5,063 nucleotides of DNA from a virus (taxonomy: Duplodnaviria > Heunggongvirae > Uroviricota > Caudoviricetes): the IMG/VR virus record IMGVR_UViG_2778261276_000004; one strand, 5' to 3'. This document shows positions 77 through 4,930 of this stretch, piece after piece. The notes under the pieces were generated by a model. That model had not been told where the DNA came from and did not search any database. It saw only the letters and a list, made by a program, of their open reading frames with translations. Position 1 is the first letter of the stretch; each line of letters opens with the position of its first letter. Position numbers and translations under genes: made by a program.

Positions 77-1018
77 TCACCCCCTGAATCCTGCCGGGAT
101 CTGGCTGTAGTCCACATTGTCGTAACTGGCTTTGAAGTACGGGTCCTCGCGTTTTTCTGTGTGCGTGCTGACGGACGGCGATAAGCGCAGGGAAAGCTCA
201 TCCCATTTTTCCCGCAACTTCGACGGGCTGAGCACGTTACGGCACCAGAACGGATCGCGGCTGACGCGGCTGTACATCTCGCAGATTTGTTTGTGAGTAC
301 GACCATCCTGCACACACATCAGGCGAATTTCGTTTGCCCAGGCTGTCCAGTTAGGTTCTTTGGGACGAACCACCTCGCCGTCACATTCGGCGGCCTGCTC
401 GTACAGGGCGATGATTTTTTTCCAGAGCCACTGTGCGCAGGTCAAATCATCCTGCGTCCCCCACTGGCGCTTTTTAGGGCTGAATACAACCGCATCAGGA
501 TGGCGAGTTAAAAAATCCTGTTCATCCGTCTGCGTGTCCGGTTGCGAAGCGTCCGGACGAGAAGGTTTTTTATCTGACGGATCATGTTTTGATTTTACTG
601 ACGGATCCCCGCCAGATTCTGACGGGTGAAAACCCGCTTTTTTGCCAGATTTCGACGCATCAAATTTTGACGGGTCAGATTTTGATGCGTCAGATTTTGA
701 CGGGTCAGAATCTGACAGTTGAGAAAATGCCGCTGCCTGAAGCTTCGCAACGTTAAGCTGATAAACATTCGACGCATTGCGGTTACCCTGGCGACGCGCC
801 TTACGCGTTAACCAGCCTTCTGCTTCCAGCCGTGCGATAGCTGTCCTGACGGTACTCATCCCCGCGCCAATCTGGCGGGCAATGGTTTCAATTGATGGCC
901 AGCACACACCTTCGTCATTACTGAAATCAGCCAGGCGTGCCATAATTGCCACGCTGGATAATTTCATGCCTGACGCAGCGCAACCATCCCATACATAGCC
1001 GGTTAATTTAGTGCTCAT
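77..1018 (-). CDS. phage replication initiation protein, lambda O-like
   Basis: 313-aa ORF. The N-terminal ~95 aa (VAIMARLADFSNDEGVCWPSIETIARQIGAGMSTVRTAIARLEAEGWL) look like a winged-helix DNA-binding domain typical of phage/plasmid initiators. This is followed by a low-complexity Ser/Asp/Lys linker encoded by tandem DNA repeats and a C-terminal domain. GAGG sits 6 nt upstream of the ATG at 1018. It occupies the position after cro and cII in the early-right operon. Confidence 0.8.
   Translation of the reverse strand: MSTKLTGYVWDGCAASGMKLSSVAIMARLADFSNDEGVCWPSIETIARQIGAGMSTVRTAIARLEAEGWLTRKARRQGNRNASNVYQLNVAKLQAAAFSQLSDSDPSKSDASKSDPSKFDASKSGKKAGFHPSESGGDPSVKSKHDPSDKKPSRPDASQPDTQTDEQDFLTRHPDAVVFSPKKRQWGTQDDLTCAQWLWKKIIALYEQAAECDGEVVRPKEPNWTAWANEIRLMCVQDGRTHKQICEMYSRVSRDPFWCRNVLSPSKLREKWDELSLRLSPSVSTHTEKREDPYFKASYDNVDYSQIPAGFRG
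613..720. repeat. iteron-like tandem repeats inside the replication gene (candidate origin of replication)
   Basis: Five contiguous 15-bp units at 646-720 (cagatttcgacgcat / caaattttgacgggt / cagattttgatgcgt / cagattttgacgggt / cagaatctgacagtt), a further copy at 613-627 (cagattctgacgggt) and degenerate T(C/T)TGACGG cores at 573-580 and 597-604. An AT-rich stretch lies on the low-coordinate side (about 561-600). Lambda ori likewise lies inside gene O. Confidence 0.6.
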
Positions 1019-3527: not shown

Positions 3528-3699
3528 TTGATTTTCCTTTTATGTATACGGGCTTAAAAGGATACCACCGAGCCTGAAGTGGTGAAAAGACAGGCACATA
3601 ACAGCTAAGTATTTTCAACCAAAGAGAATCCTTAGCGTTGTGGTGAATGCGGCTCAGCGCACGCGGGTTAAGGTTGAGGCTGACAGTCGACCTTCTGTG

Positions 3700-3827
3700 G
3701 ATACCCACCCGCCTGGTGTGCAACCTTCGCCAGGCACCGGGAGGCACCCGGCACCACAACTTTATGCTGTGTGTAGTCTTGGCGGTACCAGTTTGTACCC
3801 TTGCTTCCGGCTGGTATCGCCCTTTTT
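3700..3827 (+). ncRNA. candidate small RNA ending at an intrinsic terminator (possibly DicF-like); 5' boundary undefined
   Basis: GC-rich, hairpin-rich segment with no protein-like ORF on either strand. GGCGGTACCAGTTTGTACCC (3781-3800) resembles, from memory, the GGCGGTATCAGTTTTACTCC segment of E. coli DicF. Its location in the early-left operon of a lambdoid prophage matches where dicF sits in the Qin prophage. Confidence 0.3.
3781..3827 (+). terminator. Rho-independent terminator (plus strand)
   Basis: Stem GGCGGTACCAG (3781-3791) pairs with CTGGTATCGCC (3811-3821), 11 bp including one G-U pair, with a 19-nt loop. It is followed by C then TTTTT (3823-3827). Confidence 0.55.
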
Positions 3828-4040
3828 ACAAAACAGAGAAGAGCATCACCGGACGACGGGCTTATAACCCAATCCATCCGGGCGGCTGCTACCGCAGGTG
3901 TTCTTCTCTGTTTTGTGGAGAAACTAACTGCCCCTGCGGGGGCATTTATGGAAATGTAATTGACTCAATAATCGCCGGACGGTGAGGGCTTCCTTTTACC
4001 CGAATTCAGCGCGGTGCAGCGCATATACGTGGAGAACAAA

Positions 4041-4577
4041 ATGTCATTTATTAAAACTTTTTCCGGGAAGCATTTTTATTATGACAGGATAAATAAAGAC
4101 GACATCGTTATTAACGATATCGCGGTTTCCCTTTCAAATATCTGTCGCTTTGCAGGACATCTTTCACACTTCTACAGTGTCGCCCAACATGCGGTGCTTT
4201 GCAGCCAGCTGGTGCCACAGGAATTTGCTTTTGAAGCTTTAATGCATGATGCAACAGAAGCATATTGCCAGGACATCCCCGCACCACTGAAACGACTTCT
4301 TCCTGACTATAAACGGATGGAAGAAAAAATAGACGCCGTAATCCGTGAGAAATACGGGTTACCTCCTGTTATGAGCACGCCAGTGAAATATGCCGATCTC
4401 ATTATGCTGGCAACCGAACGCCGCGATCTCGGGCTTGATGATGGCTCTTTCTGGCCTGTACTGGAAGGTATCCCGGCAACAGAGATGTTCAAAGTGATTC
4501 CACAGGCACCGGGCCATGCCTACGGGATGTTTATGGAACGTTTTAACGAGTTATCGGAGTTACGCAAATGCGCATGA
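4041..4577 (+). CDS. yfdR: HD-domain phosphohydrolase, YfdR-like 5'-deoxynucleotidase
   Basis: HD motif visible (FYSVAQHAVLCSQL ... EALMHDATEAYCQDIP). The ORF track begins at a GTG at 4014; the ATG at 4041 with GGAG 6 nt upstream gives 178 aa. Gene name is from memory of the K-12 CPS-53 prophage HD-domain protein, not from a search. Confidence 0.8.
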   Translation: MSFIKTFSGKHFYYDRINKDDIVINDIAVSLSNICRFAGHLSHFYSVAQHAVLCSQLVPQEFAFEALMHDATEAYCQDIPAPLKRLLPDYKRMEEKIDAVIREKYGLPPVMSTPVKYADLIMLATERRDLGLDDGSFWPVLEGIPATEMFKVIPQAPGHAYGMFMERFNELSELRKCA

Positions 4578-4930
4578 ATGTTTTCGAAATGGAAGGGTTT
4601 CTTCGTGGGAGATGTGTACCGCGAGATCTGAAAGTGAATGAAACAGATGCTGAATACCTGGTGCGTAAATTCGATGCGCTTGAAGCTAAATGTGCAGCAC
4701 AGGAAAACAAAGTAATACCAGTGTCAACTGAACTGCCACCAGCAAATGAAAGTGTTTTGTTATTCGATGCTAACGGAGAAGGCTGGCTAATTGGCTGGCG
4801 TTCTCTCTGGTACACCTGGGGACAAAAAGAAACCGGAGAATGGCAGTGGACATTTCAGGTCGGGGACCTTGAAAACGTCAATATCACTCACTGGGCAGTA
4901 ATGCCAAAAGCACCGGAGGCTGGAGCATAA
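4568..4930 (+). CDS. yfdS: hypothetical protein (120 aa), YfdS-like by position and length
   Basis: ATG at 4568 with GGAG 8 nt upstream; overlaps the stop of the HD-domain gene by 10 nt. Translation is protein-like. The name rests only on recalled synteny and size in K-12 CPS-53. Confidence 0.65.
   Translation: MRMNVFEMEGFLRGRCVPRDLKVNETDAEYLVRKFDALEAKCAAQENKVIPVSTELPPANESVLLFDANGEGWLIGWRSLWYTWGQKETGEWQWTFQVGDLENVNITHWAVMPKAPEAGA

Follow-up and report, generated by a model that had tools for sequence, protein, structure and literature searches.

Repeats conserved as DNA within the linker-coding part of an O-like initiator gene: probable iterons of an enterobacterial prophage origin

The window analysed here (the whole 5,063-nucleotide stretch of IMG/VR record IMGVR_UViG_2778261276_000004, a virus of the Caudoviricetes) carries an O-like replication initiator gene which contains, between the parts that encode its N-terminal domain (N-domain) and its C-terminal domain (C-domain), an array of 15-bp repeats. 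The locus raises the question of whether these repeats are kept for the DNA or for the peptide which they encode and, if for the DNA, which process they serve. It was found that the repeats are kept as DNA, not as protein, across dozens of enterobacterial prophages, which makes it most likely that they serve as binding sites in an origin of the lambda style. On the sequence evidence we consider it probable that they are the iterons of an origin of prophage replication which lies inside the prophage's own initiator gene, where the linker is encoded. Judged from the sequence, the arrangement is that of a textbook origin inside an initiator gene, with the repeats in the same interdomain position as those of lambda; new here are another family of DNA-binding domain, contiguous in-frame palindromic repeats of 15 bp, a wide distribution and a link to a known binding site of the host regulator SrsR. 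A paper describing this origin was not found in the literature; a paper on the 'Eru' replication regions of Stx phages makes no mention of iterons or of this initiator family, and the SfIV genome paper names the replication module only.

The initial annotation of the window had placed 15-bp repeats at 572-720, in frame and in a lambda-like linker between two domains, and each of these points was borne out. When 3 mismatches or fewer were allowed, the consensus CAGATTTTGACGGGT was matched at 613-627, 646-660, 661-675, 676-690 and 691-705 and, on the minus strand, at 700-714, which gives 6 matches where 0.17 were expected by chance; none of 200 shuffles reached 6. A sixth unit lies at 706-720, and Tandem Repeats Finder reported 646-709 with a period of 15 (4.3 copies, 81% matches) as well as a period of 30 (88% matches). 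Two degenerate copies of the core, CTGACGGATC, were located at 574-583 and 598-607, and in total 6-8 copies of the repeat are present within 574-720, inside the interdomain linker of the initiator open reading frame (ORF). The exact core T(C/T)TGACGG occurs in 4 copies, and four further copies are near matches. Start-to-start spacing of the cores is 24, 21, 33, 15, 15, 15 and 15 bp, all of them multiples of 3, and the array accordingly stays in frame; the encoded peptide is SDSDPSKSDASKSDPSKFDASKS..FHPSESGGDPSVKSKHDPSDKK, between the HTH_36 domain and the lambda-O-like C-domain (see Table 1 for coordinates). Scans with the 15-mer and with the 13-mer described below detected no second repeat cluster elsewhere in the window.

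Two properties of the element were absent from the initial annotation. The first is that each unit consists of a 13-bp palindrome or near-palindrome, GTCARAWTCTGAC, followed by a 2-bp spacer; the 13-mer was matched 4 times where 0.09 matches were expected, and one copy, GTCAGAATCTGAC at 704-716, is a perfect palindrome, while the remaining units are 1-2 mismatches away from dyad symmetry. The second is that conservation is strongest at 566-631 and not in the tandem array. This block includes the isolated unit, of which CAGAATCTGG is essentially invariant among relatives, and two invariant GATC sites, which lie 24 bp apart (580 and 604) in the core of the putative origin. The AT-rich stretch of the initial annotation was upheld in part: the segment 561-600 does have the lowest G+C content of the initiator gene (0.325), but the enrichment is moderate only, and the segment overlaps the degenerate copies and does not abut the array. 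DnaA boxes were no more frequent in the window than chance would give (11 near-matches compared to 10.8 expected, none within the array), nor was GATC enriched over the window as a whole (14 observed, 18 expected); only the two GATC sites of the block stand out, because they are invariant.

Relatives were collected as 80 loci from one-genome-per-species data, picked by peptide patterns of the N-domain only and with the linker not used in the selection; they came from Escherichia, Citrobacter, Klebsiella, Enterobacter, Kosakonia, Buttiauxella, Yersinia, Rahnella, Pantoea, Tatumella, Providencia, Proteus and others. Four phages were added (Klebsiella phage 1 LV-2017, Citrobacter phiNP, Yersinia YeP3 and coliphage P27). 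A linker of this type was present in every one of the collected loci and phages. The 13-mer GTCARAWYCTGAC (with up to 2 mismatches) was found 357 times in 79 distinct genes (median 5 per gene), and all but 3 of these occurrences were 270-450 nt from the ATG. DNA of the N-domain and array matched 2107 of 5426 complete E. coli genomes, with relatives across the Enterobacterales. Near-identical enterobacterial prophage genes were also present in assemblies labelled Vagococcus, Chryseobacterium, Martelella and Pseudomonas lundensis (loci L017, L041, L046 and L078); these assemblies are likely to be contaminated or mislabelled.

The block at 566-631 encodes 22 codons, F(D/H)P(S/P)ESGGDPSV.S..DPSDKK. 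Among 70 distinct relatives, the mean major-codon frequency was 0.94 in this block compared to 0.54 in the N-domain, for which 64 conserved degenerate columns served as the reference (Mann-Whitney, P = 5e-8). Where an amino acid was shared, the same codon was used in 90% of cases in the block and in 43% in the N-domain. Nucleotide identity was higher in the block than in the N-domain (0.83 vs 0.71), yet amino acid identity was lower (0.72 vs 0.79). Drift of the DNA under a preserved peptide had been named in the initial annotation as the outcome that would speak against an origin, and the opposite was found, with synonymous sites nearly frozen. Repeat number, which had been proposed as something to compare, did vary while the repeat itself was conserved: in near-identical E. 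coli prophages the array differed in length by -15, +15 or +30 bp, with the sequence of the units unchanged.

A corresponding pattern was seen within the tandem units, 291 of which were taken from the relatives by peptide pattern and not by DNA motif. Serine at position 2 was encoded by TCA in 281 of the 291 units (97%). Position 3 was K, E, D or N, with the codons AAA, GAA, GAT or AAT, and all 291 of these codons ended in A or T. Serine at position 4 was mostly encoded by TCT (186 of 208 serine codons), and aspartate at position 5 was GAC in 80%, while the residue that falls on the 2-bp spacer varied freely (A, P, L, T, G or R). The aspartate codon was GAC in tandem units and GAT in 100% of the relatives at both of the positions where it creates GATC. 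Of the serine codons in the linker 85% were TCA or TCT, compared to 20% in the N-domain of the same genes, and AAA made up 97% of the lysine codons, compared to 56%. In P27 and in locus L079, a 21-bp copy has been kept out of frame, where it encodes VLTLQNL or FTRQNLT rather than FDPSDSG. This codon pattern fits a DNA motif and is one that constraint on the peptide would not yield; the repeats are under strong purifying selection at the nucleotide level, independent of the encoded peptide.

The product of the gene was 99.7% identical to the 'O protein family protein' of phage SfII (tblastn) and was matched end to end (residues 1-313) by phrog_391, 'replication initiation O-like' (E 1.4e-135); PHROG profiles named 'replisome organizer' and 'DnaD-like helicase loader' also matched. 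In its N-terminal part, Pfam identified the winged-helix family HTH_36 (PF13730, E 4.3e-11, 42.9 bits against a cutoff of 25), with weaker matches to DnaD_N and RP-C, and no match to Phage_rep_O (PF04492) was found in the initiator. The C-domain was 39% identical to those of lambda O and phi80 gp15 (tblastn, E about 1e-17). BLASTP against lambda O (E 7e-26) aligned amino acids 70-277 with 78-270 of lambda O and set the array-encoded linker opposite the iteron-carrying linker of that protein. Given an HTH_36 N-domain and a lambda-O-type C-domain, the initiator is therefore a chimera with a different presumed origin-binding domain, in agreement with the earlier proposal of an iteron specificity distinct from that of lambda. 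A single-sequence AlphaFold model was poor (predicted local distance difference test, pLDDT, of 44) and showed residues 100-162 without predicted secondary structure, and a PDB sequence search gave weak MarR-type matches only, to the helix-turn-helix region.

The last part of the protein has a distribution of its own. Amino acids 281-313 only were 82% identical to the replication proteins of cdtI, a Stx2c phage and PhiR40_1, and DNA matches to SfV and mEp460 lay at positions 1-152 of the window. Of the 56 relatives that have a Phg_2220_C domain, 13 also had a ..VDYS..GFR-like ending. This C-terminal tail may act as a transferable peptide on which a host replication factor docks.

The N-domain and the repeats are inherited as one module, whatever C-domain is attached to them (at least three types): they were joined to a Phg_2220_C domain in 56 genes, to a lambda-O-type domain in 14, to a P27-type domain in 1 and to others in 2. 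In HTH_36 initiators that are more distantly related, this place is taken by different repeats, namely GGGGTGGGGCAGGAGCTGCCC three times in F451 and a 66-bp unit twice in cdtI. In the divergent members L080, L086 and L088 the repeat core has changed from GTCAGA to TCCAGA, as in CCTCCAGAATCTGGAGG, and the presumed recognition helix shifts with the core, from STVRTAIA to STVYGALA or STIRGAIA; this covariation is qualitative only.

By analogy, the N-domain is expected to bind the repeats and replication to start there. The HTH_36 winged-helix domain would bind the palindromic units, probably as dimers if lambda and P22 are a guide, and the sites bound would be the five contiguous units at 646-720, the one at 608-626 and the two GATC-linked core copies at 574-607. 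The resulting nucleoprotein complex may then destabilise the adjacent, moderately AT-rich (T-rich) DNA at approximately 561-600, and the lambda-O-type C-domain and the C-terminal tail would recruit the host helicase machinery.

Methylation may be a further element of such an origin. The initiator gene is usually followed by a PerC/YfdN-type gene, by a gene for a phage Dam-type methyltransferase, or by both (loci L001, which is SfII, and L010-L089); in SfII the genes after the initiator are PerC, dam, LexA-DBD, RusA, KilA-N and Q. The Dam-type gene was present within approximately 900 bp downstream in roughly 40 of about 75 loci. Together, the invariant GATC pair and the downstream phage dam gene suggest that methylation may control the putative origin, a form of control which is known at oriC and at P1 oriR.

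A number of observations weigh against an origin at this site. A helicase-loader gene is absent downstream of the initiator in SfII, and the route from the C-domain to the helicase is unexplained; among the relatives, only 9 of about 75 loci have a DnaC-like or P-like gene directly after it. The enrichment in A+T is modest, at 67% over 40 bp. The 15-bp period is out of helical phase (approximately 1.4 turns), and characterised iterons lie approximately 20-24 bp apart. All copies are in frame here, and within the window alone a peptide repeat would look identical; the out-of-frame copy occurs in the P27/L079 lineage only and is therefore supporting, not decisive. Finally, the only protein which has been experimentally shown to bind the array is SrsR, a regulator of the host.

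The evidence on SrsR (YgfI, a LysR-type regulator) comes from E. coli K-12, where yfdO, in the prophage remnant CPS-53, is an N-terminally truncated copy of the initiator gene. The strongest SrsR peak obtained in K-12 by genomic SELEX (systematic evolution of ligands by exponential enrichment) was assigned to the 'yfdO/yfdP spacer' with an intensity of 1206, the other sites compared here having intensities of 158-288 (PMC9181523). On the K-12 copy, SrsR gave a 66-bp DNase I footprint in vitro, which contains four boxes, TCAaATTTTGa, TCAGATTTTGa, TCAGATTTTGa and TCAGAgTcTGa (PMC9181523). These boxes are the 15-bp repeats, at 1761, 1776, 1791 and 1806 of locus L009 (span 1761-1816), and they match 660-715 of the window, where comparison of the sequences revealed four TCAGATTTTGC-like boxes (1-2 mismatches) in an arrangement identical to that of the footprinted site. 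The published 'SrsR box' consensus TCAGATTTTGC (PMC9181523) finds its best match in these phage repeats, and by far its strongest site is the array of the truncated O-like gene. The array is an experimentally confirmed protein-binding site, the protein tested being a host regulator. In that study the site was treated as an intergenic operator; the word 'iteron' is never used and 'replication' appears only in a gene description (PMC9181523). It is most likely that the published 'SrsR box' operator is the phage origin array inside a truncated initiator gene, an identity which changes the reading of the SrsR consensus and regulon.

How the two proteins might relate can be put in more than one way. 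A tentative and rather doubtful proposal is that the array is a docking site shared by the phage initiator, for which it provides the iterons, and by SrsR, in combination with loader-less initiation and with tuning by phage Dam through the GATC sites; if shared docking were true, stationary-phase or stress signalling of the host would act at the origin itself to gate replication or expression of the prophage. That the array is instead primarily an SrsR operator, serving transcriptional control of the prophage operon and not replication, is unlikely. The top SELEX peak and the footprint do fall on the repeats of the CPS-53 copy (PMC9181523), but where the gene is intact the array occupies the middle of a 313-amino-acid ORF rather than a promoter region, array and phage N-domain are conserved together in genera that range from Yersinia to Providencia and Pantoea, and the most conserved 66 bp (566-631) are outside the four SrsR boxes, and it is because of these three points that we regard an operator as the primary function as improbable. 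In addition, a scan for sigma-70-like promoters at 300-1400 gave 0 sites, and the different repeats at the same position in other HTH_36 initiators are consistent with the phage protein determining specificity. Binding by SrsR may be genuine yet of secondary importance, and it is compatible with an origin.

It is similarly improbable that the initiator binds the repeats only in order to regulate its own gene, as a roadblock or autorepressor, with the origin located elsewhere. Constraint on the DNA and co-inheritance with the N-domain demonstrate a cis site for a module-specific factor and do not tell which process that factor serves; an autoregulatory operator and an origin are inseparable by computation. 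Against autoregulation, in each lambdoid case that has been characterised repeats so placed form the origin, the 5-kb window contains no second repeat cluster, and the invariant GATC pair and the T-rich DNA beside the repeats resemble an origin and not an operator.

Very unlikely, too, is the view that the repeats are the by-product of a repetitive, disordered peptide linker which grew by slippage, with selection acting on the peptide alone. Such a linker would account for copies that are all in frame at spacings which are multiples of 3, for a copy number that shifts by whole 5-codon units and for a segment without predicted secondary structure (in a low-confidence model). It would not account for synonymous sites that are frozen while amino acids vary, for a position at which K, E, D and N are interchangeable and the third base is fixed as A or T, for aspartate codons that are GAC or GAT according to position within the same linker, or for the out-of-frame copy in P27 and L079, and the palindromic structure of the unit is left unexplained by a peptide repeat.

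A hairpin in the mRNA or in single-stranded DNA, acting for example through translational pausing, is a very remote source of the constraint when compared to a protein site on duplex DNA: the minus-strand RNA of 560-725 does fold stably (minimum free energy, MFE, of -53.2 kcal/mol; z = -5.75 vs shuffles), as is expected from palindromes, but the arms of the palindrome do not covary (41 of 87 complementary, permutation P = 0.16, comparing the third position of the Pro codon with that of the Gly codon), most units (those with AAA at position 3) have an uncompensated A-C mismatch in the putative stem, changes in copy number would shift long-range pairings, and the array region has no Rfam match at the gathering threshold. 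With arms that do not covary, the idea of a hairpin kept by compensatory change was dropped, and primary sequence is what is conserved. One terminator-like hairpin was seen on the plus strand at 623-636 and is probably incidental. Overlapping genes were also considered as candidates (589-756 plus, 595-777 minus and 360-629 plus) and were rejected, as none had a PHROG family and none was consistently open in relatives.

As iterons of an origin, the repeats would have a significance beyond this phage. The replication module is very common and includes the remnant yfdO of K-12 and the genes of the Shigella serotype-converting phages SfII and SfIV. The putative origin is narrowed to approximately 155 bp, which makes it a concrete target for studying or disabling the replication of these prophages, and the case illustrates that constraint at the codon level alone can expose an origin hidden in coding sequence.

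Taken as a whole, the window represents the region for immunity and replication in a lambdoid prophage of the SfII/SfIV/e14 type, from E. coli or Shigella. Over positions 1-1400 it shares 98-99% identity with the phages SfII and SfIV of Shigella and with several phages of Escherichia. The features of the window and of the initiator are collected in Table 1.

Table 1. Coordinates of the initiator gene, of the repeat element within it and of neighbouring genes in the 5,063-nt window
Feature	Position	Strand	Evidence or remarks
O-like replication initiator gene, 313 amino acids	77..1018	minus	ORF list, tblastn, phrog_391, SfII annotation
Winged helix-turn-helix HTH_36, amino acids 23-70	809..952	minus	Pfam PF13730; presumed origin-binding domain
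C-terminal domain, amino acids 166-277	188..523	minus	Homologous to C-domains of lambda O and phi80 gp15
C-terminal tail ..DPYFKASYDNVDYSQIPAGFRG, amino acids 281-313	80..178	minus	Common to replication proteins with differing other domains
Five contiguous 15-bp units	646..720		Encode (D/x)(P/A)SKS repeats
Isolated unit, 19-bp near-palindrome CCCGCCAGATTCTGACGGG	608..626		Encodes HPSESGG; 33 bp from tandem array
66-bp block, near-invariant nucleotides across Enterobacterales relatives	566..631		Most conserved part of element
Direct repeat of CTGACGGATC (two copies) with T-rich DNA between; a GATC Dam site in each copy (580-583, 604-607)	574..607		
Moderately AT-rich stretch, G+C 0.325	561..600		Composition profile; lies towards the 3' end of the gene relative to the repeats, like its lambda counterpart
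PerC/YfdN-type gene, first 24 codons only within window	74-3	minus	Next gene 3' of initiator
CII/YmfL-type gene	1920-1363	minus	Followed by a small unknown gene, then the initiator ORF
cro (P22_Cro)	2158-1958	minus	
S24-type cI repressor	2256-2882	plus	

Some further observations were made outside the initiator gene. On the minus strand at 1008-1366, two ORFs overlap in different frames, each with family support: one of 112 amino acids (1028-1366; phrog_1170, E 2.9e-70), of which phrog_20047 spans the first 63 amino acids only, and one of 59 amino acids (1008-1187; Pfam DUF4222, E 8.6e-19). RefSeq annotates the DUF4222 gene, and phage records annotate the 112-amino-acid ORF instead; the latter call is probably over-extended, the real order being a gene of approximately 63 amino acids and then the DUF4222 gene. 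A gap of approximately 510 bp without a supported ORF was noted at 3528-4040. Its RNA is predicted to fold very stably at 3600-3960 (MFE -157 kcal/mol, z = -5.96), the Rfam small RNA (sRNA) family STnc100 matches 3615-3830 on the plus strand over the full model with 41.7 bits (E 1.1e-7; gathering threshold 47), and there is a weak DicF-like match at 3768-3822. DNA similar to the gap was found in 3006 of 5426 E. coli genomes, at up to 8 places per genome, and was annotated as 'hypothetical protein' only; the gap is probably a prophage sRNA locus of the DicF/STnc100 type. At 4041-4930 the window carries a homologue of the YfdR-like HD-domain 5'-deoxynucleotidases (a weak Pfam YfbR-like match, E 2.4e-5), followed by a DUF551 protein, in a gene order which resembles yfdP-yfdQ-yfdR of K-12 CPS-53.

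Among known systems, the origin of lambda within gene O is alike in that its repeats are in the linker-coding part between a DNA-binding N-domain and a C-domain, have internal dyad symmetry and have AT-richer DNA on the gene's 3' side, and in that the C-domains are homologous. As a positive control, the same repeat tool recovered the four iterons of lambda at codons 117-145 with a spacing of 20/24/23. The two differ in the N-domain, which is Phage_rep_O in lambda O (PF04492, E 5.8e-36) and HTH_36 here, and in the repeats, which in lambda are four iterons of approximately 20 bp at that spacing, in different frames, and here are 15-bp units, contiguous, in frame and in 6-8 copies. In addition, unlike in lambda, a P gene is absent after the initiator in the near-identical SfII, and the AT-rich region is weaker here.

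For lambda, P22 and L, iterons that differ from phage to phage have been described within the initiator-coding region (PMC8022706). Gene 18 of P22 and gene 18 of phage L (six 11-bp repeats) resemble the present gene in carrying iterons of their own inside the initiator gene, and in P22 gene 18 the control scan found four linker repeats (spacing 20/24/23) where the record annotates rep_origin. The P22 gp18 protein has a PF04492 N-domain (E 6.9e-38) and no significant similarity to the initiator described here, and P22, unlike the window, encodes a DnaB-type helicase of its own next door. The SrsR box array of K-12 CPS-53 is the same DNA element, with the difference that here the gene is intact and the array internal to the ORF.

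The G38P protein of Bacillus phage SPP1, like other 'replisome organizer' proteins, binds an origin located within the gene that encodes it. Compared to the initiator analysed here, G38P belongs to a phage of a different host and its binding sites are unrelated in sequence, and the relationship rests on profile matches only. Plasmid iteron origins of the RepA/pi type share with this locus a winged-helix initiator and tandem direct repeats, and the initiator here has the weak RP-C match; on plasmids the iterons measure approximately 17-22 bp, keep roughly to the helical phase and are situated outside rep, whereas the present repeats have a 15-bp period and are part of the coding sequence.

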